Shown: piece after piece, positions 39,079-54,188 of the stretch | Layout: every line of letters begins with the position of its first letter | Position numbering within the stretch: position 1 is the first letter of the stretch | DNA from: Eubacteriales bacterium | Lineage (GTDB): Bacteria > Bacillota > Clostridia > Oscillospirales > UBA644 | NCBI GenBank assembly: GCA_045637625.1 | Contig: JAZTZU010000064.1 | Span: 1,081-65,080, forward strand | Direction: 5' to 3' | DNA: 64,000 bases | Position numbers and translations under genes: made by a program | The notes under the pieces: generated by a model | The model's database searches: none | What the model saw: only the letters and a program-made list of their open reading frames with translations | What the model was told of the DNA's origin: nothing

Positions 39079-39255
39079 CTTGTGCGGTAGAAAATGAGCC
39101 GCACAAAAGAAACAGACCGATACGGTATTTTGCCGAATCGATCTCGGCAAAGAACCGTGTTGACAAAGGTACTTGGCCCTTTTGAATTGATATAAATTGA
39201 GTTTGTCCCTTGCGGACATCTCCGAAAATTGATGATCGAAAGGAGTGTAAAACAC

Positions 39256-39450
39256 ATGGCTTCAAAAAAGACACTTGTTCCCCAGGCTAAAGAAGCTCTC
39301 AATAAATTTAAAATGGAAGCAGCTTCCGAAGTTGGCGTAAACCTCAAAAACGGCTATAACGGCGACCTCACATCTAAACAGGCAGGTTCTGTCGGCGGCC
39401 AGATGGTCAAGAAAATGATCCAGGCTTACGAAGACGGCATGAAGAACTGA
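39256..39450 (+). CDS. Alpha/beta-type small acid-soluble spore protein
   Basis: LVPQAKEALNKFKMEAASEVGV, GDLTSKQAGSVGGQMVKKMI; AAGGAG RBS. Confidence 0.95.
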   Translation: MASKKTLVPQAKEALNKFKMEAASEVGVNLKNGYNGDLTSKQAGSVGGQMVKKMIQAYEDGMKN

Positions 39451-39479
39451 TAAAAGTCAGACCGTTTGTATATGAAAAG

Positions 39480-39508
39480 AGAGGGCAGCATCTTTGTGCT
39501 GCCCTCTC
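39480..39508. terminator. Hairpin between convergent genes
   Basis: AGAGGGCAGCA-TCTTTG-TGCTGCCCTCT. Confidence 0.65.
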
Positions 39509-39544
39509 CTCAATAAAGGAAAAAATATGAAAAAGTAGGAATTC

Positions 39545-39694
39545 TCAACGGTATACCGAATGTGAATGGCACACGGTTACGTTTGGTTCGATGTATTTCT
39601 GCTGCGGTTTTCTGAGATAGTTGTCATAAACTCCCGCAACTGTAGCCATTGCAAAAAGAACAAGAATTACTATGAGTTTTTTTGAAACTGTCAT
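39545..39694 (-). CDS. Small (49 aa) secreted or membrane-anchored protein
   Basis: AAAGGTGG RBS; MTVSKKLIVILVLFAMATVAG signal/TM-like N-terminus. Confidence 0.55.
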   Translation of the reverse strand: MTVSKKLIVILVLFAMATVAGVYDNYLRKPQQKYIEPNVTVCHSHSVYR

Positions 39695-39977
39695 TGTGAC
39701 CGTCCACCTTTCGTTTTTATTGGGCAAAAAGTTTTTCCTCATTGCCTTACATAACGTTAGACGACGTAACCGACAAAATGTTCCATTGAATTTTGTGAAA
39801 CTTCTGTGAACTTGTTTTTTCGGAAATAATATGATCCTGCAAGTCATTATACTGTATAGAGATATTGAATCAAGACTTATTTTTTCCCGAAAGTATCATA
39901 TGTTTTGAACATTTTTTGCCGCAAAGATATTGTATAATATAATTGAAACCAAACAAATCTGAAAAAGGAGCTTTGCC

Positions 39978-41981
39978 ATGTACAGAATTTTTGAATTGAA
40001 TCCTCAGCTTATACCTTTTGAAAAAGATATAGACCTTCGTATGGAGCTTTATCTTAAGACTAAAAAGCGTCTTTTGGCTACAGGTCAGACTCTTAAAGAC
40101 TTTGCCAATGCTCATAATTATTATGGCTTTCACCATGTTGAAGGTGGTTGGTACTATCGCGAATGGGCTCCAATGGCTCAAAAACTTTACCTTGAAGGTG
40201 AATTCAATGGCTGGAACAAAACTTCTCATCCTTTGAAAAAGCTTGAAAACGGAAACTGGGAGATTTTTCTTGACGGTGACGAAGCTCTTTGGGACGGTTG
40301 TAAAGTTAAGGTCGTTGTCGACACGAAATTTGAACGTACCGAACGTTTCCCGCTTTATACAAAAAGGGTAGTCCGAGACCCCGTTTCCTTGGTTTTTGAT
40401 TCTGTCGTTGTGGATAACTTCAAGACTTTTAATTGGACAGATGAAAATTTTAAGGGTGAAAATGAACTTTATATTTACGAAGCTCATGTCGGTATGGCTC
40501 AGGAAGATGCCCGCATCGGTACATATCGCGAGTTTGCAGACAATGTCCTGCCAAAAATCAGACAAGCAGGGTATAATACAGTTCAGCTTATGGCTATCAT
40601 GGAGCATCCTTATTACGGCTCTTTCGGTTATCAGGTTTCAAATTTCTATGCTGCTTCAAGTTGGTTCGGAGTTCCTGAGGATCTTAAGTATCTTGTAAAC
40701 AAGGCTCATGAAATGGGTATCCGCGTACTTCTTGATGTAGTTCATTCCCATGCCGTGAAAAATACCGCAGAGGGAATCAATATGTTCGACGGAACCGTTT
40801 GGCAGTTTTTCCACGACGGTGAAAAAGGTGAGCATCCTGCATGGGGAACAAAATGTTTTGATTACGGTAATGACGGAGTCCTTCATTTCCTGCTCTCAAA
40901 TTTGAAATTCTGGATGGAAGAGTATCATTTCGACGGGTTCCGTTTTGACGGGGTAACTTCAATGCTTTATCACGATCATGGGCTCGGAACAGATTTCAAC
41001 AGCAACGATAAATATTTTTCATTAAATACTCATACAGAAGCAATTACATATTTACAGCTTGCAAATGAGCTTATCCGTCAGGTAAACCCCTCAGCCGTTA
41101 CAATTGCTGAAGATATGTCGGGTATGCCCGGCATGGGTCTTCCAATTGAAGATGGCGGACTCGGTTTTGACTACCGTCTCGGAATGGGACTTCCGGATCT
41201 TTGGATAAAAACGGTCAAGGAACTTAAAGACGAGGATTGGAATATTTTTAAAATCTGGTGCGACATGTGTCTTCGTCGTCCCGGAGAAAAGACAATCGCT
41301 TATGTCGAATCTCACGACCAAGCTCTTGTCGGGGATAAAACAATGATTTTCCGCCTTGCAGATGCTGCAATGTATACAGATATGGAAAAATCGACCCATA
41401 ATATGATCATCGACCGTGCTGTTGCTCTTCATAAGATGATTCGACTTCTCACACTCGGCGGTGGTGGGGAAGGTTATCTGAATTTTATGGGTAATGAATT
41501 CGGACATCCCGAATGGATAGATTTCCCCCGAGAAGGCAACGGTTGGAGTTATCATTATTGTCGCCGTCAGTGGAGTCTGAAAGAGAACGGGCTGTTGAAA
41601 TATCAATGGCTTTCCGATTTCGATGAAGAAATGATTTCTCTTGCGAAAAATAATGATCTTTTTACTCAGCAAATGGCAGACTTGATGTTTAATATGGAAA
41701 GAGAACAGATTCTTGTGTTCTACCGTCACGGGTTTCTCTTTGCGTTTAATTTCAACCCCGACCAATCAATGGCAAATATCCTCATTCCCGTTCATCAGCC
41801 GGGCGAATATACTGTTGTTTTGTCCACAGATGACGAAAAGTTTGGTGGTTGGGACAGAATTGAACATATGACCTACCCAACAAAGAAGTTTGATGGAGTT
41901 AACTATGTTGAACTTTATCTTCCTGCAAGAACTGCAGTAGTTCTCAAGGAACTTGTAATTCTCCCCTCGGAAGAGAAATAA
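39978..41981 (+). CDS. glgB: 1,4-alpha-glucan branching enzyme (GH13)
   Basis: REWAP, IYEAHVG, DVVHSHA, FDGFRFDGVTSM, IAEDMSG, ESHDQ. Confidence 0.93.
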   Translation: MYRIFELNPQLIPFEKDIDLRMELYLKTKKRLLATGQTLKDFANAHNYYGFHHVEGGWYYREWAPMAQKLYLEGEFNGWNKTSHPLKKLENGNWEIFLDGDEALWDGCKVKVVVDTKFERTERFPLYTKRVVRDPVSLVFDSVVVDNFKTFNWTDENFKGENELYIYEAHVGMAQEDARIGTYREFADNVLPKIRQAGYNTVQLMAIMEHPYYGSFGYQVSNFYAASSWFGVPEDLKYLVNKAHEMGIRVLLDVVHSHAVKNTAEGINMFDGTVWQFFHDGEKGEHPAWGTKCFDYGNDGVLHFLLSNLKFWMEEYHFDGFRFDGVTSMLYHDHGLGTDFNSNDKYFSLNTHTEAITYLQLANELIRQVNPSAVTIAEDMSGMPGMGLPIEDGGLGFDYRLGMGLPDLWIKTVKELKDEDWNIFKIWCDMCLRRPGEKTIAYVESHDQALVGDKTMIFRLADAAMYTDMEKSTHNMIIDRAVALHKMIRLLTLGGGGEGYLNFMGNEFGHPEWIDFPREGNGWSYHYCRRQWSLKENGLLKYQWLSDFDEEMISLAKNNDLFTQQMADLMFNMEREQILVFYRHGFLFAFNFNPDQSMANILIPVHQPGEYTVVLSTDDEKFGGWDRIEHMTYPTKKFDGVNYVELYLPARTAVVLKELVILPSEEK

Positions 41982-42020
41982 AAAGCAGTTAAAAGTAGTT
42001 TATATATTTGATTTCCTGAT

Positions 42021-42060
42021 GGTGCGTGGGTATCTTTTCATACGAAAAGATACCCACGCA
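42021..42060. terminator. Hairpin (REP-like) between convergent glgB and endolysin genes; left border of the phage-like cluster
   Basis: GG-TGCGTGGGTATCTTTTC-ATAC-GAAAAGATACCCACGCA. Confidence 0.7.
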
Positions 42061-42079
42061 AAAATTTTCTTTTAAAATA

Positions 42080-42769
42080 TTATATGTCTTCAAACATATC
42101 CGTGATATATGCTGCAACGCCTGCATTTTTCAACTTCTCCACAACTTCTGCGGCAGCTTCAAGGTTTCTGTATAACCCGATCTGAACGCAGTAAAGAGGA
42201 GTTCTTTCCACCGTTTTTATGTCAGCGTCATCCTTATTTAAGTCTGCAATAAACCTGTCGAATGGGAAATCCTTTCCGGGACAGCCTGCTTTTTGCGTCG
42301 GATTTATATCCGAATGTGCAATAATATGTTCTCTGTCCGCATTGAATTCTACTCCGTAAATTCTTTTCAGTTCGCTTATTATATGTTTCATCAGGAAGAG
42401 CCCTGATTGATATTGATCTTCTGTCAGAATTCCGGTGTCATTATTCTCAAATTCAATAGATACTGTGTAGAAATTTGCATTGGTTTTCCTTTCTCTGACT
42501 ATTGCTGATTTTGATTTTGAATAATGGTAGGGGAGAGATTTATCTTTGGAATTTGATCCGTTTGCCCATGCCATTTTTTCAATGGGAACAAAATTATAAA
42601 TCTGTCCCTCTTTGTCTACAATATAATGTGCGCTCACCTTACTCAGCGGATTTTTAAACCAGTTTATAGCACTTTTTACCGCGCCTGCCGTCTGGTGACA
42701 GCATATCATATCAGGAACCCAGCCTTGCCTTGAACTCATGTTTACAGTTGTATATTCAATTATTTTCAT
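42080..42769 (-). CDS. Endolysin: N-acetylmuramoyl-L-alanine amidase (Amidase_2) with SPOR-like C-terminal domain
   Basis: HQT, SAHY, AWANG, SIEFE, AHSDI, CPG zinc-amidase motifs; YCVQIG C-terminal domain. Confidence 0.88.
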   Translation of the reverse strand: MKIIEYTTVNMSSRQGWVPDMICCHQTAGAVKSAINWFKNPLSKVSAHYIVDKEGQIYNFVPIEKMAWANGSNSKDKSLPYHYSKSKSAIVRERKTNANFYTVSIEFENNDTGILTEDQYQSGLFLMKHIISELKRIYGVEFNADREHIIAHSDINPTQKAGCPGKDFPFDRFIADLNKDDADIKTVERTPLYCVQIGLYRNLEAAAEVVEKLKNAGVAAYITDMFEDI

Positions 42770-43190
42770 TGTTATTCCTCTTTGATTCTATTTTTGTTTT
42801 TTCCGCTTCGTCGTTGACCTTTTTCAGAAAACCCGTGAGTACTGACGGTACAGGGATTCCGATTTCAACTGCGTTTTCCACAATTGAAAGACCTTCGTTT
42901 GAAAGATAGAAGAATATCACCGCAGTTCTCAGTACCTGCCCCGACCCAACCATGTGTACATCCAGAAGGTTTGCCATTCCGACGAAAATAAAAATCAGCA
43001 TTTTTTTCATCAACCCTTTGAATCCGATTTCGGAACAGAGCTCTTTTTTCAGGATTGCGGCCGTTACCCCTGTCAGATAGTCAATTACTGAAAAAATACA
43101 GAGAACTATCAGCAACCCGTCAAGCTTCCCGAAATAGAATCCAAGAACAGCGCCTATCACCGCAAAGGTGCTGTCAAAAAATGTCTTCAT
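42756..43190 (-). CDS. Phage holin (holin family 4)
   Basis: DYLTGV..A, SEIGFKG, YLSNEGLSIVEN, GIPVP. Confidence 0.9.
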   Translation of the reverse strand: MKTFFDSTFAVIGAVLGFYFGKLDGLLIVLCIFSVIDYLTGVTAAILKKELCSEIGFKGLMKKMLIFIFVGMANLLDVHMVGSGQVLRTAVIFFYLSNEGLSIVENAVEIGIPVPSVLTGFLKKVNDEAEKTKIESKRNNNENN

Positions 43191-43211
43191 TTCTTTTGCT
43201 TCTCCTTTCTG

Positions 43212-44567
43212 TTATATTCCCGATACTTCCGTTACATTTCCGCTTTCGTCTGTCAAGGATACAAGATTTCCCGATTCGTCGAAACCGTATCTGTAAGAGC
43301 AAACAGTATCGTTTTCAAGTGTATATGAAACTCCGTTTTCGGTGAAATCCACTTTTTTCAAAGCCAAAAGCTTTTCGTGTACCGAGTGAATAGTTACTTT
43401 TTTCGCCGTTTTTTCCAGAGTTATATTTTTTCCTGCGAGAATGTCGTCAACGCTCATTCCTCCGTTAGACTTGGATCCTGCCCCTTGAACATCCCCGTCG
43501 TTTTTGTTTACCAACTGCCCGAACTGTTCTTTCCAGCCGTCAGGCGGTCTGTATCCGATCTCCGCTCCGCTGCTGTACCGGGCGGTTATTTCATAAACGA
43601 ATTCCCCGTTTTTCAAGCTTTTTCCGTAAATTTCCGTGATTATAAAGTCGGAAAAATCTTCGAATCCATAGTTTTTTGCCCTTACTCTGATTTTTTGAAA
43701 AAGCTCCAAACTATTGCGGCTTATTGAAAAATTCAATGTTACAGAATCATTTTCGTATGATCTTAGAATGTTCGCGGCGGCTTCAGCTGCTGAAGCTTCC
43801 GTCAGAATATTTCTGTTTACCGTAACGTTGGCATATTCTCCCGAACCACCGAATTCTGCCATTCTTGCAATCTCTTCTTCGTTTCTTGCCTCTCCCCGTA
43901 CATCGTTTTTTCCGAAAACTACCTGTACGTTTCTGTAGTCAGCAGCCTTTCCCACAAATTTTAATCCGGAAATATTTTTCACTTTATTTTCGCTGTCACC
44001 GTCAAGGTCTATGCAAAATCCACATTCTGTTACAGGTATGTTTTGTTTGAAGCAGAATTTTTTGTCGGAGGTCACCCACCACTTCTTTCCCGAAGCCTGC
44101 GCAAGGTCATCGAACAGCTTTGAAAGTTTTGCTCCCGCAGAAGAGTATGAGTCAATGATTTCCCCATCAAATTCAAAGTTGTCTTCGACATACTGAAATC
44201 CTTCTTCGCTTACAAGATATTCCAAAAATATCTCTTTTGCAACCTGACCTGCAGTCATATTTTCAAAAGAAAGTCCTCTGCTTACTTTTCTTGCGGCAAC
44301 CGACTCATATCCCTTGCATTTAACAGTCACGGTGCTTCTGAATTCCGATCTTCTGGTTTCTTTCGTTTCAGAGATTATTCCTCCCCATACTTTTTTCCCG
44401 TCAATGAACATTTCCGCCTCCATTCCCGTCCGTATTTCTGTTTCATTTGGGAAGGATTCTTCCATGGAAAATGCGATTTCAGTCAAAAATGTTCCGTACC
44501 TTGACCATCTGACAGAATCGGCTGCCACCTTTTTTGTTACATCAGTATGATTTACCGTGATCGTCAT
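43212..44567 (-). CDS. Putative tail tip / baseplate hub protein
   Basis: Position before the holin; 'KVWGGII', 'FDDLAQASGKKWWV' and 'YRNVQVV' resemble tail hub proteins. Confidence 0.5.
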   Translation of the reverse strand: MTITVNHTDVTKKVAADSVRWSRYGTFLTEIAFSMEESFPNETEIRTGMEAEMFIDGKKVWGGIISETKETRRSEFRSTVTVKCKGYESVAARKVSRGLSFENMTAGQVAKEIFLEYLVSEEGFQYVEDNFEFDGEIIDSYSSAGAKLSKLFDDLAQASGKKWWVTSDKKFCFKQNIPVTECGFCIDLDGDSENKVKNISGLKFVGKAADYRNVQVVFGKNDVRGEARNEEEIARMAEFGGSGEYANVTVNRNILTEASAAEAAANILRSYENDSVTLNFSISRNSLELFQKIRVRAKNYGFEDFSDFIITEIYGKSLKNGEFVYEITARYSSGAEIGYRPPDGWKEQFGQLVNKNDGDVQGAGSKSNGGMSVDDILAGKNITLEKTAKKVTIHSVHEKLLALKKVDFTENGVSYTLENDTVCSYRYGFDESGNLVSLTDESGNVTEVSGI

Positions 44568-44570
44568 CTT

Positions 44571-45035
44571 TTAGCCCTCCGTAATTTCAAATTCACCCTC
44601 AGTTCCTGCTCCGTTTATGTAAATATCACATTCAAACTCTGAAAAATAATCGTCTTCGGGAGCTCCTTCCGCGGAAGATCTCTTCATTACCACTACTACA
44701 GGAACGAGAATCCCGTCACAAACTCCGTTATCTAAAGAATTTCTGTCAAAAAGGATCGCTTCCGTCTCGCAGTCTTTGCCTGTTTTTCCGTAAAGATCGC
44801 AGATGAATTTGTTTGCCCTATCGTCTGAAACTTCCGTTCCGTTGATCCTTAAAAATTTCCTTACCCCCAAAACTTCTGTTTGCGCAAAATCATTACCTAC
44901 GAAAAATGTACTCATGGTATATGGCTCTGAAATTTTTCGTATTCGTTTTATGCCTTTTTTCAGCGGAACAAACTGTCCGTCTGCTTTCAGGCAAATTCCA
45001 ATATCTTGGCTTAAGTTAAGCTTCAATAAATCCAC
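44571..45035 (-). CDS. Putative tail tube protein
   Basis: 154 aa, position after head-tail genes, C-terminal FECDIYING.G. Confidence 0.5.
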   Translation of the reverse strand: MDLLKLNLSQDIGICLKADGQFVPLKKGIKRIRKISEPYTMSTFFVGNDFAQTEVLGVRKFLRINGTEVSDDRANKFICDLYGKTGKDCETEAILFDRNSLDNGVCDGILVPVVVVMKRSSAEGAPEDDYFSEFECDIYINGAGTEGEFEITEG

Positions 45036-45040
45036 CTCTT

Positions 45041-45460
45041 TTATTCTTCTATATACATCAGTTGGAATACTGCGCTGTATTCCTCTTCACCGCCTGTGCA
45101 TCTGACCGACATTGTAGGAAAATCCGTCCTGAAAGCTCTGATGAAAATCCTGCCTTCTCCCAGATCCATTTCCGTTGTCTTTTCCAATATTCTTGCCAGC
45201 TGTTCCAGCATCCCCAAAGTTTTCATTCTTGACGCAGAATCGTTTCCCGAAGTCCTGTAGGAAATCTCAAAATTCTGCCTTACGGAAACCGTCCCATCCA
45301 GCCACTCCGTGCGGCGACTCCCGTTGTTTATCATTTTTAAAGAAGCTGTTCCGCACTTTTTTTCAAGTCTTTCACAGCCAATATCCGGCATATGTTCAAT
45401 TCCTCTGAAGAAATTCAACAAGTATGCTGAAAGCGGTTTATAATTTGAATTTAAGTTCAT
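45041..45460 (-). CDS. Putative tail terminator / A118-type minor structural protein
   Basis: Size, position, 'WLDGTVSVRQNFEI' and terminal 'YSAVFQLMY'. Confidence 0.5.
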   Translation of the reverse strand: MNLNSNYKPLSAYLLNFFRGIEHMPDIGCERLEKKCGTASLKMINNGSRRTEWLDGTVSVRQNFEISYRTSGNDSASRMKTLGMLEQLARILEKTTEMDLGEGRIFIRAFRTDFPTMSVRCTGGEEEYSAVFQLMYIEE

Positions 45461-45476
45461 CCTATCCTCCGTTCCG

Positions 45477-45941
45477 TTAGTCTGAATCCACGCTTCTGCC
45501 TCTTCCGGTAATTTCCAAGAGAGTAACTTTCCCGAAACTTCTGCATGGAATTACAGAGTTCACATAGTAGATCTCACGTTCTTTTTTTATTTCGTCGAGA
45601 TCCGGAATCTCATCGGCTTCAAAAGTACCGTAGGTTACAAGGTCGTGTTCCGTTACAGTCCAAAAGAATTTACGTTCTTCAATAGGCAGATTTTCCCATG
45701 TCGCAGGCGAAGTGTAGTCCAACTCGTTTCCGTCTCTGTCTTTAGCCTTGCTGATTTTTGTTCTGAAATAAAGCTTGAATCCATCGTATGGTTTTAAGCC
45801 CCTGTTTGATGCATAAATGCTGTCCCTGTTTTCAAATCTTACATTTTCAAGGATGAAAAACTCATACAAAGCTTTTCCCTCAGAATTTTCGCCTTTTTTG
45901 CGGCAGACGGTAACATTGTCATTTAAAAGTCTGTTGCTCAT
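45477..45941 (-). CDS. Putative head closure (stopper) protein
   Basis: Position, 'WTVTEHDLV', terminal 'LEITG'. Confidence 0.45.
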   Translation of the reverse strand: MSNRLLNDNVTVCRKKGENSEGKALYEFFILENVRFENRDSIYASNRGLKPYDGFKLYFRTKISKAKDRDGNELDYTSPATWENLPIEERKFFWTVTEHDLVTYGTFEADEIPDLDEIKKEREIYYVNSVIPCRSFGKVTLLEITGRGRSVDSD

Positions 45942-45951
45942 ACTTTTTCAC

Positions 45952-46104
45952 CTATGACCTGTCAAAAATCCCCGCGTTGATAAGCTCTTCAGCAATTGCT
46001 TTTCCGAGTATTTCGGCGATTTTATCCGTGTCCCTTTCTCTGTCGAATTCATTCTGTTCGTCGCTGAATATCCAGTTCAGCTCTTTTTTGATCTCTTCAT
46101 CCAT
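45952..46104 (-). CDS. Unannotated 50-aa acidic protein within the phage-like operon
   Basis: AGGAGG RBS; MDEEIKKELNWIFSDEQNEFDRERDTDKIAEILGKAIAEELINAGIFDRS*; fills the gap between flanking genes. Confidence 0.7.
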   Translation of the reverse strand: MDEEIKKELNWIFSDEQNEFDRERDTDKIAEILGKAIAEELINAGIFDRS

Positions 46105-46118
46105 TTCCTTTGAACCTC

Positions 46119-46526
46119 CTAAATTCCTCTGTAAAGCAGGCCTGCATTGTTCAGGATCCCCAATACCATTCCGGATACAGGTATTCCGAAAAATTCCTTC
46201 ATGGGTTTTCGGCTTATGTCATAACTTACTGCACCGTTCCCAAGCTCTTCCCTTGATATCTCAGATACAGGTCTTCCGGTATATGAGCTGTCTCCGTTGA
46301 CCGCAAAAATTTCAGTCTGTGCCGCAGTTGCTTTTTTTACCGCATCAAATCTTTTTACCCAGCGGAAATCTGAAGGGTTCATGTTCTCCATTACCGATTC
46401 TGCTCTTCCGAATGTTATGAAGTTTACAATATCCGAAGCTCTTGCTGCGAGTCTTTCAAAATCATCTTCGCTTATTTCTGCTCCGAAGTAGAAATTATCA
46501 TAATAATCCTTATCTATAAAAATCAT
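46119..46526 (-). CDS. Head-tail connector (adaptor) protein
   Basis: YY...Y/F.G, F..LA.RAS..V...T, KKATAAQ, terminal GLLYRGI. Confidence 0.7.
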   Translation of the reverse strand: MIFIDKDYYDNFYFGAEISEDDFERLAARASDIVNFITFGRAESVMENMNPSDFRWVKRFDAVKKATAAQTEIFAVNGDSSYTGRPVSEISREELGNGAVSYDISRKPMKEFFGIPVSGMVLGILNNAGLLYRGI

Positions 46527-46547
46527 ACTCTGTTCCTTTCTTTAAGG

Positions 46548-46580
46548 AGAGTTCCTGTGCTAAGACAGGAACTCTTTTTT
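46548..46580. terminator. Hairpin directly downstream of the capsid gene
   Basis: AGAGTTCCTGT-GCTAAG-ACAGGAACTCT; T-run on the plus strand only. Confidence 0.55.
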
Positions 46581-46586
46581 GTTGAA

Positions 46587-47684
46587 TCATTCTCCGAGAA
46601 CTCGTACCGCAAGTTCAGGATAAAGTGTCTTGAAGCCGTAAAGTGTATCCACGGACATAGTCTGCTTTTTAGTAGCCATGTCATATCCGAAAGTCACCCT
46701 GAGAGTTATGCCGTTATAGCTTGTCACATAGCTTTCAGCACCTCTTGCTTTTTCCAAAGGTCTTGAAATGAATCCGAATGCGTTCTTATGGAAAGCAAGG
46801 TTTGCAGTATGGGAATCAATCAATGCAACTTCTGTACCTGCGGCAAAACCGTTCGCAGGGACTGCTGGATAAATATCAACATTCATTACGCCGCCTTCTG
46901 CTGTTGTGTCATTTTTTACTGTATATGTTTTGCCTTCTATCGTAAGAAGGTCACCTTTAACAAGAGAACCGGAGTCACAGCTTACCGCAATTTTCTTGTC
47001 TCCTTCAAAAGCTTCTGTTTTTACTGTAAGTGAACCGCTTGCAGAACCCTTTGAATGTTTGCAGATCTGATGGGAAGTGTAGTTTTCAAAACCGATTATC
47101 TTGCCGATAGAACCGTTTCTCAGCGCTTTTGTTGTTCCGCATTTTTCTGCGTTTACAATGTTTGTGTCACTCTGGAATTCCGCAAGTGCTGCGCTGTTCC
47201 AGATACAGGATCTGTCTGTGAGCGGTGCTTTGTTTTCGTTGAGCACCTTTGCTGCCTGTGCGAACGCGCCAATACCGGAAGGTGTCGTGCCTGCTTCTCC
47301 GCAAATATAGGGAATATCTTTATAAAGAGCGAGACCGTCCTTGTTTATCTTTTCTGCAATAGCTACTGCTGCAGGTTCAAGAACCTGTTTTGTGAAGTCG
47401 GAAAGGTTCAACGCCATTTCCTTTGCTGTAAGCTCAACGGAAACGTCCGCAATTCTGTCGAGAGTTACGAGCACGCTTTCTTCGGTTACGTCCTGAAGAT
47501 TGATTTCGCCTTCAAATTCGTCGGCTGTGTACATGGGCGGTTTTCTGACCTGTACTACATCACCTTTTTTGTTGTATTCGCTGGTACTGTTTCTGTATGT
47601 AAGTGCGGGGAATACGAGGTTTTCGTGAAGAATGGGGAGTGCAGCTCTTGCGATCTCCTGTACTGTAAGAAATTTGTTGTTCAT
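46587..47684 (-). CDS. Major capsid protein (P22 coat-like family)
   Basis: FLTVQEIARAAL, KGDVVQVRKP, LEPAAVAIAEKI, NLAFHKNAF, DTLYGFKTL.PELAVR. Confidence 0.8.
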   Translation of the reverse strand: MNNKFLTVQEIARAALPILHENLVFPALTYRNSTSEYNKKGDVVQVRKPPMYTADEFEGEINLQDVTEESVLVTLDRIADVSVELTAKEMALNLSDFTKQVLEPAAVAIAEKINKDGLALYKDIPYICGEAGTTPSGIGAFAQAAKVLNENKAPLTDRSCIWNSAALAEFQSDTNIVNAEKCGTTKALRNGSIGKIIGFENYTSHQICKHSKGSASGSLTVKTEAFEGDKKIAVSCDSGSLVKGDLLTIEGKTYTVKNDTTAEGGVMNVDIYPAVPANGFAAGTEVALIDSHTANLAFHKNAFGFISRPLEKARGAESYVTSYNGITLRVTFGYDMATKKQTMSVDTLYGFKTLYPELAVRVLGE

Positions 47685-47700
47685 ATTTTTTATCTCCTTT

Positions 47701-48066
47701 TTATTTCATAATTTTTTTGTAGTATTCATCATCACTCAGGGAACTTGCGTCGGAAAGATCTCCGAAACCGAAATTCATTCCTGAAGAATAAAGTTTTGTA
47801 TCTGATTTTGTGTTTTCAAAAAGCCATGAGTTTTCCTCTTTAAGTTTTGCTATGTTTTTACTCAAGGATTCCTTGTCTATTCCGTTTTCAGTCAGGATTC
47901 CGTCCTTGTCAAGCATTACTTTTGCCGCTGCCATATTTTTGGGTCGCGCAAGGGCTATCTCTGTGTTTATTTCCGATTCTGCCCTTGTTCTGAAGAGTTC
48001 CTTTTCAAGCTCTTTGACTTGCTTTTTGAGAGTTTCGACCTCTGTTGTTTCGTTCATGTTTTCCAT
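47701..48066 (-). CDS. Capsid scaffolding protein (GP20-like, short)
   Basis: Coiled-coil N-terminus, 'KNMAAAK..LD', 'LKEENSWLF'; located before the capsid gene. Confidence 0.65.
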   Translation of the reverse strand: MENMNETTEVETLKKQVKELEKELFRTRAESEINTEIALARPKNMAAAKVMLDKDGILTENGIDKESLSKNIAKLKEENSWLFENTKSDTKLYSSGMNFGFGDLSDASSLSDDEYYKKIMK

Positions 48067-48068
48067 TT

Positions 48069-49475
48069 TTATTTCCTTTCTGTTTTTGACTTTGCGGTCT
48101 CCTCGTCTTCGCCAAAATGCTTCATTCTGAATTCGTAAGGCATCAGAATTCCTTCTTTTACAAGTTCGAGGTCCGTCTTTTGTCTGCTCTGTTTGTCTTC
48201 GATAATACTGTCATCGAAGACTACCGATATTCCCGGTTCTTCCGGAATGTCCAATCCTATAATTTCTCTGCCGATATACATCAGCGTTTTTACTAATGTG
48301 ATCAGCGCGCTTTCAAGCAGTATTTCATGCTTTTTCAAAGACCTGAACATTTCCGAGTTCTCGCTTATCACCTGCGTTGCTGTTACGGCGTTTCCCTTTT
48401 CAAAACCGTAGGATCTTTCGCTGAGACCGCATTTTGCTGCCAGATATCTCATCTGGTCTTTAAGTGCTTCCGTGTGTGCGGAAACTCTCAGTTCCGGATT
48501 GAATTCCTGGGGTATCATATCTCCGTCAAGATTTTTGTCTCCCACATACATGAACAGCTGTCTGTTGCAGTCCTGCGGTGCGAAGAAATTTCCGTGACTG
48601 TCCTGTTCCAACAGGTCTTTTCTTAGGAATACCATCTTTTTGCCAAGATAAAATTCCATATTCAGACTGTCGTAGCACAGGTCTATTCCTTTCAGAATAT
48701 CTGTTGCTGCCGCAAATATCGACATTCCCATAGGGGATTCCGGAGTTGCTGTATTTACTGTGTTTGGTTTTATCAGAACAAACCAGGGTTTACTGCTTCC
48801 CGTTCTCACTATCGGTGCAATATTTTCAGGGAGAGATATCTCTTCGAGACTCTGCGCATTGTACATTTTGCTTCGAATTACATATCCGTCATTCTCAAGG
48901 ATGTGACTCTGAACATAGACAAGCTCTTCTCCGCAAACAGTCATACAACCTGCAAAAGCTATGTCCATGACTTTTCCGTTTCTGTGCGATATCGGGAAAA
49001 TATTCTCAGCACCCACGTATTCAAAGGCGATTTCGCCTTTCGGGGATTTTTTCAGCTTGCCGTCCTCATCTATTTCAGCATTTTCAATGTTTACAGTAAT
49101 AGCCCCTGTACCCAGCGCGAATGCTTTTTCAATAAGTCTGTTCGTTTCAGCCCTGAAATTGTTTTTTCCGAAGACGCCTCCATAGCCATCCTTGCCTTGA
49201 AGAAAATCCATTGCAGTGCTGTCGTTTACTGTTATATACGTCTTTTCGTTGAACAGCAGATCCGCCCAATCTTCCGCCACTTTTTTTGCCATTTTCAGTT
49301 TGAACATCGGCCTCTTTACTACTTCTATTCCGTTGTTGATTTCCACCGTATGGAACTCATCGTCCTTTCCGCAGTACCAGTCATTCCACATTTTTATGTG
49401 AAACCTCATTTCGTTTTCGCAAAAGCGGTCTCCAATCGCTTTTTTTACCGCTTCTTCAAGATAATTTCCAATCAT
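48069..49475 (-). CDS. Portal protein (SPP1/A118 type)
   Basis: W..WY.G, MAKKVAEDWADLLFNE, GMSIF, TATQVISENS, FDDSIIED. Confidence 0.88.
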   Translation of the reverse strand: MIGNYLEEAVKKAIGDRFCENEMRFHIKMWNDWYCGKDDEFHTVEINNGIEVVKRPMFKLKMAKKVAEDWADLLFNEKTYITVNDSTAMDFLQGKDGYGGVFGKNNFRAETNRLIEKAFALGTGAITVNIENAEIDEDGKLKKSPKGEIAFEYVGAENIFPISHRNGKVMDIAFAGCMTVCGEELVYVQSHILENDGYVIRSKMYNAQSLEEISLPENIAPIVRTGSSKPWFVLIKPNTVNTATPESPMGMSIFAAATDILKGIDLCYDSLNMEFYLGKKMVFLRKDLLEQDSHGNFFAPQDCNRQLFMYVGDKNLDGDMIPQEFNPELRVSAHTEALKDQMRYLAAKCGLSERSYGFEKGNAVTATQVISENSEMFRSLKKHEILLESALITLVKTLMYIGREIIGLDIPEEPGISVVFDDSIIEDKQSRQKTDLELVKEGILMPYEFRMKHFGEDEETAKSKTERK

Positions 49476-49479
49476 TTTT

Positions 49480-50811
49480 TCACCTTCTTTCGTTTGTAAA
49501 GATCAGTTGTTTGCTGAATCTTTCCCATGCGTACTCTTCTGCGTCTGCCGTATCAATGTCAGTTGAGCCGTTGTCAAGTCGCTTGTCAGGGTGTGCTGTG
49601 TCCCACATTTGTGCTGCAGTGCTTTCAATTACATTTTTGCAGCTCTCAAGAACGCACCATCTGTCTTCAGCCATAAGTCTGCTTTTGCATGATACCCTTT
49701 CCGCTATCGGAAGTTTTCTGCTGTCGGATATCCCGGTTTTTATTCCCGCCCGCCTAAGTGCTTTTTTCATTCCATTGGTCAGGTATTGTGCTTCGCTGTC
49801 TGCAAAAATGTACTGAACAGGATATTCGGGAAAATCTTTTTCAAGTTCACGGTAAAATTTGATAAAACCCTCTTCCACCTCCGTTGGTGTGATTTCACCT
49901 TTTTTACCCGAAATTTTCGTGTCTTTCAGTACGCACAATCCTGCCATCCCCCTGCGAATACCTACCGCAACAAACGCAGATGCTGACATTGTTCCGCCGT
50001 AGTCTATTCCGATAACAACATGAGAAATATCGTCGGGAGGTTTCTGCTTTATCCACCTTTCAGGATTCTGCACAAAATTCATGAATATCAGTCCTTCAGC
50101 GGCGGCTCTTTCCCCGAGAATGCACCTTTTATACCAGAAGCTGCCGGGAACATATTGCTTTGTGATTTCTTCGATTCTGTCTTCGCTTATGGCGCGGTTA
50201 TCGAATATAGTGAATTTTTTATGGTTTACATCAAGCCCGTCCGCAATATACCTGTCTATGTATTTTTTGTATATCGCATGGTTTGGGTGGTCGGGGTTGA
50301 AGTCCCATAAAATTCGCCTCATTCCCGAAGCCAACAATCTGTTGAATGCTTCCGAAACAAAACAGTGGTCATCGTCTGAAATGTAATGCTTGTTTACCTC
50401 TGACGCGATCCACATTCCGTAGGAGTTTCCTCGGATTTTTTTGTAGCTGTCAGATTTTCCTCCGCCTGCAAAAATAACGACTCTTTCAAGTTTTTTCTTT
50501 GTTGTGATGAACAGCGCTGTAGTTCCCTTGTATTGACCCCAATGGCATCTCCCTCGGAAAATATGCTCAAGACCAAAACCGTTACAGTCGCCGATATTCA
50601 TGCAGGCAGCTGAAAGGGAGGTCCCTGTGGCAAGATGGAGCTTGTCAGGGGATCTTTCCAACAGCATTGCAAAAGCGTAAACATTGCTTATTGTTTTTCC
50701 CGAACGAACAGCCCCCTCGGCGAAATTGTAGGTGTGGCGGAGACACGCAGAGATATACTCTTTGTGAAGTTTTGAAAAGGGCTTCCATTTTATTTTTTTC
50801 GATCTTACCAT
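49480..50811 (-). CDS. Large terminase subunit (PBSX family)
   Basis: Walker A EGAVRSGKT, KIRG, Walker B WIASE, DFNP, nuclease GIDYG / FADS / DTADA..YA. Confidence 0.9.
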   Translation of the reverse strand: MVRSKKIKWKPFSKLHKEYISACLRHTYNFAEGAVRSGKTISNVYAFAMLLERSPDKLHLATGTSLSAACMNIGDCNGFGLEHIFRGRCHWGQYKGTTALFITTKKKLERVVIFAGGGKSDSYKKIRGNSYGMWIASEVNKHYISDDDHCFVSEAFNRLLASGMRRILWDFNPDHPNHAIYKKYIDRYIADGLDVNHKKFTIFDNRAISEDRIEEITKQYVPGSFWYKRCILGERAAAEGLIFMNFVQNPERWIKQKPPDDISHVVIGIDYGGTMSASAFVAVGIRRGMAGLCVLKDTKISGKKGEITPTEVEEGFIKFYRELEKDFPEYPVQYIFADSEAQYLTNGMKKALRRAGIKTGISDSRKLPIAERVSCKSRLMAEDRWCVLESCKNVIESTAAQMWDTAHPDKRLDNGSTDIDTADAEEYAWERFSKQLIFTNERR

Positions 50812-51135
50812 TTAATCGCCGTCTCCGAAAACCTCCAGTTCATCGAAATCCTCAATCTCATCTTCGGGTCTTCTTTTCCAAAGTCCAAGATAATCGCCCA
50901 GTTTCAAAAGGGCAGTCAGCTTGTTGTACATTTTGAATCTGAATCCCGATTTTCCGTTGCGAATTTCAGCCACCGCGCGAATGTCAACCTTGTCGCTGTT
51001 TTTGACAGACACCACAACTTCTCCGTTCTCGTTTTCCGCATAACTTATGTAATTGTCAATGTTGTCAAAAGCTATTTTTGCCAGCTCCTGAATAACTCTT
51101 TCTTCGGTGACTTTTTCTTTTTTCTTCTTCGGCAT
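50812..51135 (-). CDS. Small terminase subunit, apparently lacking the N-terminal HTH
   Basis: VTEERVIQELAKIAF and KMYNKLTALLKLGDYLGLW match the C-terminal part of Terminase_2; GAGGTG RBS. Confidence 0.75.
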   Translation of the reverse strand: MPKKKKEKVTEERVIQELAKIAFDNIDNYISYAENENGEVVVSVKNSDKVDIRAVAEIRNGKSGFRFKMYNKLTALLKLGDYLGLWKRRPEDEIEDFDELEVFGDGD

Positions 51136-51161
51136 TTACTCACCTCTCTTTCCGTGTTTAT

Positions 51162-51236
51162 ATTATATCACTAATCGTGTATCTAAAACTGTTGGATTTA
51201 TCCACAGTTTGTGTTTGTTTTTATCACATATTGTGA
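51162..51236 (-). promoter_or_regulatory. Putative activator-dependent promoter of the phage-like operon
   Basis: Extended -10 TGATATAAT (51162-51170) with no -35; palindromes at 51186-51210 (containing TTATCCACA) and 51224-51236. Confidence 0.55.
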
Positions 51237-51257
51237 CTATAACTGTGCTAAATTATC

Positions 51258-51457
51258 AAGTTTGCAATGATTTTCAACTAATAGGCTCTGATTACGAAGA
51301 GTGTAAACAGCTTTTTTGAAAGATGATCCGGATATTGTAATCGAAAATATGATGAGGAAGTTTCTTTTCGCTCGTTAAAACTTCAGATTTCAGTATACGG
51401 TCCTTATGGAAAAGTTGAATCTGTAATGGTTGCAAAAGAAGGATATTTCCAATCTTA
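51258..51457 (+). pseudogene. Probable degraded gene remnant
   Basis: Protein-like segments in shifting frames (FQLIGSDYEECKQL / DDPDIVIEN / QISVYGPYGKVESVMVAKEGYFQS*) followed by a terminator. Confidence 0.35.
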
Positions 51458-51458
51458 A

Positions 51459-51494
51459 AAATTAAGGGGTCGGTTTTGCCGACCCTTTTAATTT
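51459..51494 (+). terminator. Intrinsic terminator
   Basis: AAGGGGTCGG-TTTTG-CCGACCCTTT hairpin. Confidence 0.6.
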
Positions 51495-51539
51495 ATGCGG
51501 AATCTGTAATTTATTTAAAAATTTAATTTGTTAAACCCA

Positions 51540-51568
51540 TTGACTTTTCAAATTTAATGTGGTATAAT
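51540..51568 (+). promoter_or_regulatory. sigma-A promoter
   Basis: TTGACT-N17-TATAAT with extended TG. Confidence 0.7.
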
Positions 51569-51600
51569 TTGTTTGAAAATAATTTCAGGAGGAATCCTTT

Positions 51601-53088
51601 ATGAAAAAACCGATTTACATGAACATTGATATCAATAGTTGCACAACTCCTTATCTGAATAAAATGTCCAAAGAGGAAAATATTTCAGAGGCTACGCTCT
51701 ATTCCTACATGGATCAGTATGCAAACACGGGAATCACGGATATTCTTATTGACGTTTTCTGCCAATACTCAGCCACCGATTCAAAAATCTGGACAACTTA
51801 TGCAGACAAATATTTGCAGAAAATCGAAAACGGGGTAGAGGTGGATTATACCGACCGTTATAAGGGCCTTTATAAGTTCAACAAAATTCACGGCATTGAC
51901 CCCCATACGGTTTGGTTTAAAAGATGCCGCGAGATCGGTATAAATCCTTGGATTTCCATACGCATGAATGACTGCCATTGCCCTGACGATGATGCTTGCT
52001 TCCTCCGCAGTGATTTCTTCTACGAAGCCCGTGAAAAAGGCTGGATGGTAGGGGATAAATATGGTTATTTCCGATACTGTTTTGACTATGCGGTAAAAGA
52101 AGTCCGTCAAAAAATGCTTGATTATATTGAAGAGCAGATAAACCGCTACGATGTTTACGGCATCGAACTTGATTTCCAGCGCGAAATAGTTTGCTTTGAC
52201 TATCTGGATAATAAAAATTGCGCAGAAATTATGAACGACTTCATGCGCAATGCTTATAAAATTATTAAAAATGCTGAAAAAATTCACGGTCACGAAATTA
52301 AGATCGCAGTCAGATTGCAGCGTGATATTGAGCAGAATCTTATATACGGTTTTGATGCAAAAACCTGGAACGATGAAAAGCTTGTTGATCTTATCGTTGT
52401 TACCCCAAGATGGGAAACATGTGATACGGATATGCCCATTTCCCAATGGGTCGACACTTTGAAAAACACCGAGATCGTTGCAGGCATAGAAACATTGCTT
52501 TCGCAGCCCCATTTTGTTTCCCATGCATCGCCCGAACATGTTCGCGGTATGATGAATAAGTATCTGCAGCAGGGTTCCGAGGGTACATACCTTTTCAATT
52601 ATTTCACCATTCCATGGCGTGATTACAGCCGTTGTTTTGAGATATTCAACACATGTACAGACATTGATACCATTCAGAGTTTACCTCAGCGTCACGCCTT
52701 GGGTTTCCAGGATATTGCCCCCGAAGGCTGTAACCGCTGGAAGATCCTTCCCGCAGAATTTGATACCGTTTTTGAATTTGAAATCACTACCGGAAAGCTC
52801 CCGGTAGGAAAAAATCTGTCCGTAGTTTTAGGCTTTGAGATCGGTTCTCCCTCAGATGCTGTCATTGAGGTCAACGGTAATCTCTGCGATAATTTTGAAG
52901 CAGTTGACCCCTTTGATTTATCGCCTACTTCCACAGCACAGCTATGTGAAGATAAGTGGAATGACATCGAAACTTACTATTATCGTTGTCTTGCAGGCGT
53001 TTGCGATGGTTCCGACACCTACAAAATAAAAATAACCTCAAACGGTTCTAAGCTTAAGCTTATCGCCGCCGAGGTTGATTTGTATTAA
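51601..53088 (+). CDS. Putative glycoside hydrolase-like TIM-barrel protein (GHL10-like)
   Basis: WISIRMNDCH, FDYA..EVR, YGIELDFQR, YLFNY. Confidence 0.6.
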   Translation: MKKPIYMNIDINSCTTPYLNKMSKEENISEATLYSYMDQYANTGITDILIDVFCQYSATDSKIWTTYADKYLQKIENGVEVDYTDRYKGLYKFNKIHGIDPHTVWFKRCREIGINPWISIRMNDCHCPDDDACFLRSDFFYEAREKGWMVGDKYGYFRYCFDYAVKEVRQKMLDYIEEQINRYDVYGIELDFQREIVCFDYLDNKNCAEIMNDFMRNAYKIIKNAEKIHGHEIKIAVRLQRDIEQNLIYGFDAKTWNDEKLVDLIVVTPRWETCDTDMPISQWVDTLKNTEIVAGIETLLSQPHFVSHASPEHVRGMMNKYLQQGSEGTYLFNYFTIPWRDYSRCFEIFNTCTDIDTIQSLPQRHALGFQDIAPEGCNRWKILPAEFDTVFEFEITTGKLPVGKNLSVVLGFEIGSPSDAVIEVNGNLCDNFEAVDPFDLSPTSTAQLCEDKWNDIETYYYRCLAGVCDGSDTYKIKITSNGSKLKLIAAEVDLY

Positions 53089-53107
53089 GGATATTGGATA
53101 TTTATTT

Positions 53108-53388
53108 GCGGGGGAACATTTTTGTAAAATTGTTCCCCCGCACCCCTTCAAAAAACTTTTGTGTAAAGCATATAAAATAAATATTGATTTGCGGGAAACC
53201 CCCTTTTAGGAACAATGGGGTTTCCCGCGCCCTTTCCCGAAAACTCCTTTGAGTGAGATTAAATTGGGTCAGCCAAGAATTTTCTATTTCAGTTATATAC
53301 CTGAAGCATTGAAAATGCTTCGCCAAAAGTTTATTTGGAAAGGGGTACGGGGGAAACCTATTTTTACAAAAAATGGTTTCCCCCGTAA
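53108..53388. repeat. Cluster of three REP-like units between convergent genes
   Basis: Units at 53108-53160 and 53191-53246 (reverse) and 53325-53388 (forward, near-identical to 11537-11597). Confidence 0.85.
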
Positions 53389-53399
53389 ATATTCTGCAC

Positions 53400-54188
53400 T
53401 TATTTAACTATCAGATCTTTAACACTTCCCGTTACGATGTCAGGGTGAATGTTGTATTTTTCGATGTCATCCATAGTGCTTTCTCCTGAAAGAACCATGA
53501 CTGTAAGGATTCCCGCATTGAGTCCGCAAGCGATATCGGTGTATATTCTGTCTCCGACAAGTACTGCGTCTTCCGGCTTTTTATGTTTGTATGAAACTGC
53601 GGATAGAGCCATTTCTTTGCGAGGCTTGCCGATGTAAAAAGGTTCTTTTCCGGTAGCTTTGTTCAGCATGTAGCACATAGTCGCACAGTCCGGAAGATAT
53701 CTTTTGTTCTTGGCAGGGCATACTACGTCAGGGTTTGTTGCGTAGAACGGAATCCCGTCGTCGAGAAGTCCGCTTGCGATCTCCAGCTTTTTGTAGGTCA
53801 GTTCAGTATCGTATCCCACAAGAACGTAGTCAATGTCGCCTTTTCCGTCTTCTGAAATTTCGATCCCCATGGAAATAAGTTCTTTTTTCAGAGATTCTGT
53901 ACCAACAAGGTAGATTCTTGGGGATTTTTTAAGTCCTAAGAGATAATTACCTGTCGCTTGCCCTGAAGTGAAAATATTACTTTCATCTGCGGGGATATTC
54001 AGCGCCTTCAACTTCTTTAAATAGTCCGAAGAGCTTTTTGAAGAGTTGTTTGTCATGAATATATAATCTTTTCCATTGTCGCGGAGACTTTTAAGAAAGT
54101 CTGCCGCACCGTCGATCAGTTCATTTTCAAAATATATAGTGCCGTCCATATCAAGCAGATACAGACTTTTGTTTTCAAGTCTTTTCAT
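53400..54188 (-). CDS. HAD-IIA (NagD-like) phosphatase
   Basis: LLDMDGTIY, MTNNSS, ATNPD, IGKP, VGDRIYTDI. Confidence 0.9.
   Translation of the reverse strand: MKRLENKSLYLLDMDGTIYFENELIDGAADFLKSLRDNGKDYIFMTNNSSKSSSDYLKKLKALNIPADESNIFTSGQATGNYLLGLKKSPRIYLVGTESLKKELISMGIEISEDGKGDIDYVLVGYDTELTYKKLEIASGLLDDGIPFYATNPDVVCPAKNKRYLPDCATMCYMLNKATGKEPFYIGKPRKEMALSAVSYKHKKPEDAVLVGDRIYTDIACGLNAGILTVMVLSGESTMDDIEKYNIHPDIVTGSVKDLIVK

Follow-up and report, generated by a model that had tools for sequence, protein, structure and literature searches.

Here we present an analysis of a 9-kb operon of thirteen phage-type genes at positions 42,080 to 51,135 of a 64,000-nucleotide stretch of DNA (hereafter the window) from an uncultured Eubacteriales bacterium (assembly GCA_045637625.1, contig JAZTZU010000064.1). 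In our assessment the operon is probably a vertically inherited, domesticated phage remnant of the gene transfer agent (GTA) or viriform kind, kept by a family of uncultured Clostridia of the gut and rumen. That the element is domesticated and passed down with its host is the better founded part of this reading and appears very likely. We assign it to the GTA kind because structural, packaging and lysis genes that are intact and under selection are combined with a lack of autonomous-element genes, with inheritance that reaches to the depth of the family, and with a small terminase (TerS) that carries no DNA-reading domain. The window (G000:C64:1081-65080 in our labelling) makes up nearly the entire 65,378-bp contig C64 of its own genome, G000, which measures 2.5 Mb and is 96.8% complete.

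An earlier, sequence-only reading of the window had described a run of co-oriented genes with small gaps or overlaps and no frameshifts, and this description holds. Open reading frames (ORFs) were called mechanically, from the first start codon after a stop; all thirteen lie on the minus strand, from 51135 down to 42080, none contains an internal stop, and they are separated by gaps of 0-60 bp (3 bp between the tube and hub genes) with a single 14-bp overlap. In order of transcription, and with the signals on either side, the features are as follows (aa, amino acids; HMM, hidden Markov model; AF2, AlphaFold2; pLDDT, predicted local distance difference test):

51464..51488, no strand assigned: hairpin terminator, 11-bp stem on the plus strand and 7 bp on the minus strand
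51136..51215, minus strand: predicted conserved promoter/leader block with extended -10, upstream element and ribosome-binding site (RBS)
50812..51135, minus strand: small terminase (TerS), 107 aa; Terminase_2 E=1.2e-10, HMM positions 57-137 of 141
49480..50811, minus strand: large terminase (TerL), 443 aa; phrog_2 E=4e-23
48069..49475, minus strand: portal, 468 aa; phrog_533 E=2.3e-90
47701..48066, minus strand: scaffolding protein, 121 aa; Phage_scaffold E=2e-7, phrog_194 E=6e-7
46587..47684, minus strand: major capsid protein of P22-coat type, 365 aa; PF11651 (P22_CoatProtein) E=2.7e-43 over the full length, phrog_283 E=7.5e-87
46119..46526, minus strand: head-tail adaptor, 135 aa; phrog_541 E=3.7e-23
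45952..46104, minus strand: 50-aa ORF, role unassigned; no family match
45477..45941, minus strand: neck protein, 154 aa; phrog_3366 (function-unknown family) E=1.9e-12
45041..45460, minus strand: tail-completion-like protein, 139 aa; phrog_3266 E=1.8e-4, a weak match
44571..45035, minus strand: tail-tube-fold protein, 154 aa; phrog_820 (major tail protein) E=6e-10; AF2 pLDDT 84.9
43212..44567, minus strand: tail hub, 451 aa; no sequence family; AF2 pLDDT 76.7 (alignment of 26 orthologues)
42756..43190, minus strand: holin, 144 aa; Phage_holin_4_1 E=4e-38
42080..42769, minus strand: N-acetylmuramoyl-L-alanine amidase with SPOR domain, 229 aa; Amidase_2 E=1.2e-18 (HMM 5-131 of 131), SPOR E=2.7e-5
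42023..42060, no strand assigned: bidirectional terminator with 17-bp stem, between the amidase gene and glgB

The names first given to the terS, terL, portal, scaffold, capsid, adaptor, tube, hub, holin and amidase genes stand, and those of the stopper and the terminator proved weakly based; for the neck protein at 45477..45941, gene position suggests a role in head closure, as a stopper. Downstream, glgB (39978-41981, plus strand) ends 98 bp from the amidase gene, and upstream of terS a 465-bp AT-rich spacer, with the hairpin terminator inside it, leads to a divergent gene of 495 aa (51601-53088). The operon had been placed between ordinary host genes, which is correct on the glgB side; the other neighbour, taken for a glycoside-hydrolase-like gene, has no Pfam or PHROG match and belongs to no known family. 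Between the flanking host genes we found no replication, lysogeny or recombination genes. In keeping with the claim that neither integrase nor tRNA lies beside the operon, the window contains no tRNA and no Rfam match, and contig C64 holds none of the five Phage_integrase and none of the four Resolvase matches of the genome. An assembly artefact that removed the remainder of a prophage can be dismissed because an independent genome, G002, shows the identical glgB-cluster junction.

All genomes compared here are metagenome-assembled genomes (MAGs), related ones are not independent of each other, and an absence means that a gene was not found among the genomes searched. Within the host family we label the window's genus g1, with its clades g1A (G011,(G000,G002)) and g1B, and the other genera g2 to g10. 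The members are uncultured Oscillospiraceae, Clostridia and Eubacteriales MAGs from goat, deer, cattle and human gut, together with Candidatus Geddesella. The capsid gene is present, in single copy and without internal stop, in 30 of 46 species genomes from the ten genera (12/12 in g10, 4/4 in g8, 1/1 in g9, 12/16 in g1 with G000 included, and 1/4 in g5), and was not found in g2, g3, g4, g6 or g7. A portal search of 41 relatives was positive in 17, including 10 of the 15 other species of the genus. The expected orthologous clusters are found in relatives: the gene order (terS)-terL-portal-scaffold-capsid-adaptor-neck-neck-(tube)-hub is common, with variations, to 27 genomes besides G000.

The surroundings of the cluster and some of its genes vary with the clade. 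In G002, the nearest relative (RpoB 97% identical), the 495-aa gene also lies upstream of the cluster. In seven g1B species the cluster sits between an ABC-transporter gene and ackA, with a URO-D-like gene and a GH18 gene upstream, one or two DUF6273 genes downstream and no adjoining lysis genes; in G000 the ABC-transporter gene and ackA are found on different contigs with other neighbours. The u433 and GH18 genes upstream of the g1B clusters were considered as parts of the element and set aside, as they look like host metabolic genes. In g10 the upstream flank is variable, and the downstream flank contains the o151 gene in 10/12 loci and an NlpC/P60 gene in 11/12; here a Phage_Gp15-family gene precedes the hub gene, which is followed by an amidase-like gene, a weak BppU_N-like gene, a fast-evolving DUF6273 protein, a conserved 151-aa gene and the NlpC/P60 gene. 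In g8 and g9 (L046, L042, L041, L038 and L040) a scaffold-like gene (phrog_194 E=2e-13 in L046:14075-14407) stands after the hub gene and not between portal and capsid, which is a rearrangement inside an otherwise conserved operon. Among individual genes, the phrog_3366 neck protein is present in 26 family loci and the tail-completion-like protein in 24, the 50-aa ORF is kept only in the two closest relatives (G002, 62%; G011, 60%), and the amidase alignment across the family is heterogeneous. Orthologues of glgB occur in three g1B genomes, and the 495-aa neighbour was unmatched in all five genomes searched, leaving an empty glgB site undefinable. The DUF6273 proteins just downstream of the hub in g1B and g10 (L039:14158-15048, two copies in L061, L051:15470-16618, and relatives) are the fastest-evolving genes of the neighbourhood, with 27-49% identity and a ratio of nonsynonymous to synonymous substitution rates (dN/dS) of 0.23-0.31; an N-terminal membrane helix is found in the g1B form and not in the g10 form, and the proteins could be receptor-binding proteins or host surface proteins. 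A DUF6273 search of G000 gave no match, but its controls were equally silent.

Descent with the host was examined by a comparison of trees, one of RpoB from 40 family genomes (several of its g10 rows being partial) and one of concatenated TerL, portal and capsid from 28. Both recover the same four clades (g10, g8/9, g1A and g1B), with identical internal branching in g1A, (G011,(G000,G002)), and in g8/9, and with the same subgroups in g1B. Of the 23 splits compared over the 26 shared genomes, 13 occur in both trees, and the Robinson-Foulds distance is 20, whereas 2000 label shuffles averaged 45.6 and never fell below 40 (0/2000 as low). Patristic distances of cluster and RpoB are closely correlated (Pearson 0.97, Spearman 0.84, slope ~2), and the splits that differ are confined to the shallow g10 clade and two g1B forks of weak support. 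The congruence of the TerL, portal and capsid genes with the species tree that had been proposed as a test is thus found with RpoB, and points to vertical inheritance with the host over long periods. An early test on p-distances (Pearson 0.16-0.28 per gene, Mantel r = 0.22), which had been counted against inheritance, was disregarded because of two wrong-frame RpoB rows (G048 and G051). The rpoB genes of these two genomes (G048, C157:73-663; G051, C100:16250-16855) each contain one in-frame stop near the 5' end (TAA and TAG, respectively), probably MAG assembly or sequencing errors.

Furthermore, all structural genes are under purifying selection. The Nei-Gojobori method (NG86) was applied to nine genome pairs, and the four with dS <=0.93 (G042-G022, G009-G008, G001-G010 and G041-G022, the exception being the hub of the last pair, with dS 1.30) give a dN/dS of 0.02-0.30 for every gene, those for the tube, hub, holin and amidase included; for TerS, TerL and portal the range in these pairs is 0.02-0.20. 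Between G000 and G002 dS is saturated (>1.2 or not computable), and the computable dN/dS values are 0.03-0.21. Ratios well below 1, as anticipated for a maintained element, are therefore found wherever dS is unsaturated, and these values bear on the explanation that the operon is what is left of an ordinary prophage, decaying neutrally since its other modules were deleted. It is indeed phage-derived and incomplete, and real decay can be seen in G019 of g5, the only family member in which it is visible: at its locus (L103 = G019:C3) the capsid gene comes immediately after terS-terL, the portal gene being missing, and a portal 47% identical, with one in-frame TGA, lies on a separate contig (G019:C88:4267-5607). 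Against neutral decay, all thirteen ORFs are intact in the window and the gene set is intact in 27 other species genomes, every gene shows constraint, the promoter block described below has been kept while synonymous sites became saturated, and tree congruence disfavours recent independent insertions of the orthologues. Plain decay fits these data poorly and seems to us very improbable, whereas domestication, which the sequence-only reading had preferred to it, is favoured by every sequence-level test proposed.

The packaging genes have features expected of a GTA. In SPP1/SF6-type TerS the N-terminus is a helix-turn-helix DNA-binding domain, and this part is missing from the window protein, which consists of the oligomerisation core alone with a Lys-rich stretch as its N-terminus; the terS ORF starts immediately after a stop codon, so no further N-terminal extension is possible. 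A short TerS (~95-125 aa, spurious N-terminal extensions discounted) with no N-terminal domain was found at 19 of 19 readable loci among 26 family loci, readable meaning an ORF of at least 80 aa upstream of terL, and the degraded G019 locus being left out. Judged from its sequence, then, the window TerS appears to lack a sequence-specific DNA-binding domain, as TerS proteins of GTAs do. The TerL motifs had been described as intact, and Walker A (AEGAVRSGKT) and the three acidic nuclease positions are in fact invariant in 24/24 full-length orthologues. Together, a chromosomally fixed set of phage-type genes that has no replication, integration or lysogeny module (with the caveat of an integrase near 2/12 g10 loci), vertical inheritance, purifying selection and a TerS of this kind are the four properties used to recognize GTAs at the sequence level.

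The phage records and the genomes from other families of the order that were searched offer no close counterpart of the portal, for which orthologues within the family are 49-83% identical. Compared with 50,697 phage records it gave 211 matches, all below 60% identity and the best at 39.4%, and the head modules of the phages inspected are larger and differently built. Of 401 genomes sampled across the order, 374 lie outside the family, and 20 of these have a portal match (E <=1e-20), none above 42% identity. In a capsid tree with 7 sequences from elsewhere, all 28 from the family group together (support 93/82), and the ESM Atlas returned for the capsid generic P22-coat clusters labelled viral and nothing else. 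IMG/VR was scanned with two exact peptide patterns, because of which distant phages can be missed; the scan yielded four close relatives, namely three host-flanked clusters of the g1B type and one g10-like fragment. Nesting among free temperate phages would have spoken against domestication, and within the reach of the phage-record, order-wide, capsid-tree and IMG/VR searches no free phage is nested inside the family clade.

For comparison, Acutalibacter phage Fontainebleau, a free siphovirus with a phrog_533 portal (33.5% identical), shares the head-neck-tail gene order, but at 39 kb it is a complete phage, equipped with a replication module, a minor head protein and minor tail proteins, a TerS of 247 aa and a tape measure of 890 aa. 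A functional temperate siphovirus has a tape measure, tail chaperones, a distal tail protein and lysogeny/replication genes, none of which the window cluster has; the tail set is present in Fontainebleau, and a tape measure is also present in a prophage of G000 itself. This separate, apparently complete siphovirus prophage (contig C40, ~14000-45000, minus strand) has a 1349-aa tape measure (PhageMin_Tail E=8e-25), terS, terL (609 aa), portal and capsid (406 aa) genes, putative genes for a distal tail protein and Tal and, upstream, a block of replication-type ORFs, roles other than that of the tape measure being guesses from ORF size and order. Three loci were examined from elsewhere in the order, where several weak portal matches occur. 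Two of them, from one genus of another family (L105 in G289 and L106 in G177), are ordinary siphovirus prophages with tape measures of ~1030 aa. They share upstream genes and a near-identical architecture (TerS 163, TerL 416, portal ~472, minor head ~620, capsid 294 and tape measure ~1028 aa). The third, a compact cluster without tape measure outside the window's family (L107; G265:C6, ~4800-16700), encodes a TerL of 414 aa and a portal of 466 aa, both 25-30% identical to those of the window, followed by ORFs of 90, 323, 166, 122, 163, 202, 253, 118, 645 and 481 aa, and may be another GTA-like element.

The region upstream of terS suggests that the operon has a promoter of its own. An extended -10 (TGaTATAAT, 51170-51162 on the minus strand) is preceded ~33 nt upstream by a TGTGGATAAAT element, and a strong RBS, GAGAGGTGA, stands before the terS ATG. 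The ~75 bp before this ATG are near-identical in G000 and G002 despite saturated synonymous sites, and beyond them the upstream sequences are unrelated; in the five g1B species examined, a terminator hairpin with T-run is followed by a similar upstream element and an identical extended -10. The block is predicted to function as a promoter, and the hairpin at 51464..51488 may insulate the cluster from upstream transcription. Directly upstream of the promoter block in G002 (L031, 6214-6403) are tandem repeats, one of 42 bp in 3.5 copies and one of 10 bp, TTTTGGGTTA, in 3.9 copies. In this genome the cluster is also separated from the 495-aa gene by a 4-kb insertion made up of small same-strand ORFs, one of which has a SecDF_P1_head domain. 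The window has neither the repeats nor the insertion.

With respect to the tail, the tube protein finds as its top Foldseek matches one chain each from the baseplate model of phage 80alpha and the neck structure of SaPI1, with further matches to SPP1, lambda, monocin and RcGTA tube/tail entries (E=4e-6, TM ~0.5-0.58). For the hub a fold search was needed because a PDB sequence search with its profile gave no meaningful match. Residues 1-340 adopt the trimeric tail-hub fold of gp27, Mu gp44, VgrG and Tal-N, with matches to the MuSo2 43-kDa tail protein, Mu gp44, VgrG, T4 gp27 and the 80alpha baseplate (E to 2e-19, target TM ~0.7). The remainder, a disordered linker (344-401) and a small beta domain, is confined to the window's own subclade; hub orthologues of other clades (346-364 aa) are without it. 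Neither a tape measure, a tail chaperone pair nor a distal tail protein was found in the window cluster, and none of the 28 family loci contains a long ORF; family searches of the thirteen ORFs also returned no sheath or other contractile-apparatus family.

From these genes and folds a route from transcription to release can be proposed. The dedicated promoter just after a terminator would yield one transcript; the scaffold and P22-type coat protein would build a procapsid on the portal; and TerL, with a TerS that has no helix-turn-helix, would package by the headful any DNA available, presumably the host chromosome. The adaptor, neck and tail-completion proteins would then close the head, one or few rings of tube protein capped by the trimeric gp27-type hub would form a very short tail, and holin and amidase would lyse the producer cell. 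The modelled tail parts suggest a stub of neck, tube-fold ring or rings and hub trimer, which in negative stain might look tail-less or podovirus-like.

Delivery of DNA is the weakest link in this proposal because the cluster has no tape measure, and it is here that the main rival explanation arises: a domesticated, inherited element may be kept for a use other than transfer, either as a PBSX-like killer or decoy particle with incidental DNA, or for programmed lysis and DNA release in a population or biofilm. The evidence for inheritance and selection fits such a use equally well, and DNA delivery looks doubtful when the window encodes neither a tape measure nor a clear receptor-binding protein. 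The authors who described a GTA in Faecalibacterium (FpGTA) likewise leave undecided whether it delivers DNA or acts in a PBSX-like manner (PMC12946183). On the other side, purifying selection extends to TerS, TerL and portal, which indicates that packaging itself is maintained, and neither a sheath nor any other contractile killing apparatus was detected among the thirteen ORFs. We hold a non-transfer use to be unlikely, and name it the main rival because DNA delivery by a stub-tailed particle is doubtful.

Several observations weigh against the operon being an inherited element of the GTA kind. The window lacks not only a tape measure and distal-tail protein but also an obvious fibre, and a particle built in this way might fail to deliver DNA. 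No regulator of the operon was identified. Searches of the 46 family genomes did not detect the element in 16, among them G005 and G014 of the same genus (98% complete), and it must therefore be dispensable. Relatives of capsid and scaffold with 56-58% identity occur in other families at loci that look like prophages, and the 93/82 support for a family clade in the capsid tree is not decisive; for this reason we rely on the combined tree and on synteny, not on capsid identity. No RNA sequencing run is listed for the window stretch; contigs from four DNA runs over 38500-54500 are short and of low depth, none convincingly bridging or skipping the cluster, and they speak neither for nor against it. 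Finally, the cluster lies beside glgB in g1A, between the ABC-transporter gene and ackA in g1B and at other sites in g8-g10, and in 2/12 g10 loci the 3-6 kb upstream position relative to terL is taken by a tyrosine recombinase (Phage_integrase E=2e-15). The two recombinases (L051:328-1362 in G054 and L021:1214-2272 in G024) are 82% identical, and in G054 an FAD-oxidoreductase gene stands between recombinase and cluster. The conserved locus that had been predicted is constant within clades but differs between them; the locus is stable within clades and not across the family, and at least some relocation must have taken place.

The differing sites and the two integrases are also what a capsid-forming satellite, or a defective mobile element at preferred sites, would leave, with a helper phage such as the C40 prophage mobilising it, replicating it or supplying tails. 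Capsid-forming phage-inducible chromosomal islands (cf-PICIs), which Alqurainy and colleagues are said to have described in 2023, reportedly move horizontally and possess an integrase, regulators and a replication module but neither tails nor lysis genes. The operon resembles them in size and head-gene content, with its own terminase, portal, capsid and head-tail connectors; a complete siphovirus prophage is at hand elsewhere in G000; and a murine-gut preprint (10.64898/2026.07.08.737213) warns that GTA candidates can be satellites. Unlike a cf-PICI, however, the window cluster has host genes at both ends and is vertically inherited, and at the g1A and g1B loci no integrase, AlpA-type regulator, primase/replicase or repressor lies between the flanking host genes. 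It also encodes its own tube, hub and lysis proteins, and horizontal spread would have erased the family-wide co-divergence with RpoB. A satellite fits the data poorly, and we consider it improbable; an inherited GTA-like element remains the preferred reading.

Among known systems, RcGTA of Rhodobacter capsulatus and the other alphaproteobacterial GTAs set the pattern of a vertically inherited head-tail cluster that diverges with its host under purifying selection. GTAs of this type have a TerS without specific DNA-binding domain and are released through lysis. In RcGTA itself the capsid is of HK97 type and comes with a protease, the tail includes a tape measure and distal tail, hub and 'megatron' proteins, and the genes for lysis and fibres lie at separate loci. 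Its tube protein (6tba, 6toa) is among the fold matches of the window tube protein; in contrast, the window has a P22-type coat with scaffold, no protease and no tape measure, and beyond generic phage folds no common descent of the two can be detected. PBSX of Bacillus subtilis is ~28 kb long and forms a killer particle with a contractile tail, while the tail parts of the window, compared with PBSX or a tailocin, are a tube-fold protein and a hub, with no sheath or baseplate family among the thirteen ORFs. PBSX packages ~13 kb of host DNA and lyses the producer (PMC12946183); likenesses to it lie in a Gram-positive host, a chromosomally fixed defective prophage, host-DNA packaging and producer lysis.

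The sequence-only reading had held such an element to be uncharacterised in Clostridia, which is outdated: FpGTA has been described in the gut anaerobe Faecalibacterium, a host within this class (Borodovich et al., Nat Commun 2026, PMC12946183). According to that report, FpGTA consists of a 10.5-kb head operon of ten ORFs (TerS without obvious DNA-binding domain, TerL, portal, scaffold, capsid and hypothetical proteins) and a separate second operon of 5.5 kb (baseplate, fibre, receptor-binding protein, holin and endolysin); its particles, ~40 nm and with no visible tail, contain about 8.4-9 kb of host DNA, and it is present in 12/12 Faecalibacterium genomes examined. The identifiers published for it are RCH50849.1 (capsid), RCH50851.1 (portal) and, in CP030777, positions 2536737-2546346 and 2672270-2677176. 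The same source reports GTA-type packaging in Oscillospiraceae, Ruminococcaceae and Christensenellaceae, with genes unidentified for Oscillospiraceae and Christensenellaceae, and further GTA candidates in Coprocola and Butyricicoccaceae are proposed in the preprint (10.64898/2026.07.08.737213). Our own literature search on GTAs in Clostridia, Oscillospiraceae and Bacillota found no description of the host family's cluster.

On its published description, FpGTA shares with the window the TerS-TerL-portal-scaffold-capsid order, a compact head operon, a TerS without DNA-binding domain, the lack of replication and integration genes, a holin with a lysis enzyme, and near-ubiquity within its genus as a further likeness. 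Its tail-less particles fit a cluster of the window type, as this has no tape measure. The differences are that FpGTA comprises two operons, whereas the window has a single 9-kb locus of thirteen ORFs with lysis genes attached; that FpGTA has tail proteins of short-tailed-phage type and the window a siphovirus-type neck, tube and hub; and that particles and packaged DNA have been demonstrated for FpGTA and are predicted for the window element. A split, two-operon-like form may exist in the g1B relatives, since their clusters have no adjoining lysis genes. The differing organisation, as described, together with the lack of close portal relatives elsewhere in the order, suggests, but does not prove, that the window cluster is a lineage separate from FpGTA. 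More tentatively, we raise the possibility that it represents a second, independent and much older phage domestication in Clostridia, distinct from FpGTA: a GTA lineage as old as the family, with a siphovirus-derived tail reduced to tube ring and hub and a conserved dedicated promoter, that may actively transfer chromosomal DNA from cell to cell in the guts of ruminants and humans.

GTAs were long believed to be almost restricted to Alphaproteobacteria. The work on FpGTA indicates that GTA-type packaging is common in gut Clostridia but links genes to it in one genus only, and the window locus provides a candidate at the gene level for another family, known solely from ruminant and human gut MAGs. 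The evolutionary evidence (co-phylogeny with the host, purifying selection and family-wide synteny) is as strong as that by which alphaproteobacterial GTAs are defined. Furthermore, a minimal particle system of thirteen genes without a tape measure bears on how short a functional tail can be, and the cluster genes are usable as markers for GTA activity in rumen and gut virome data.

Outside the cluster, the window also contains a host gene (36500-38788, minus strand) whose 762-aa product has repeats of the right-handed beta-helix type (Beta_helix E=3e-19) and is 85% identical in G002.

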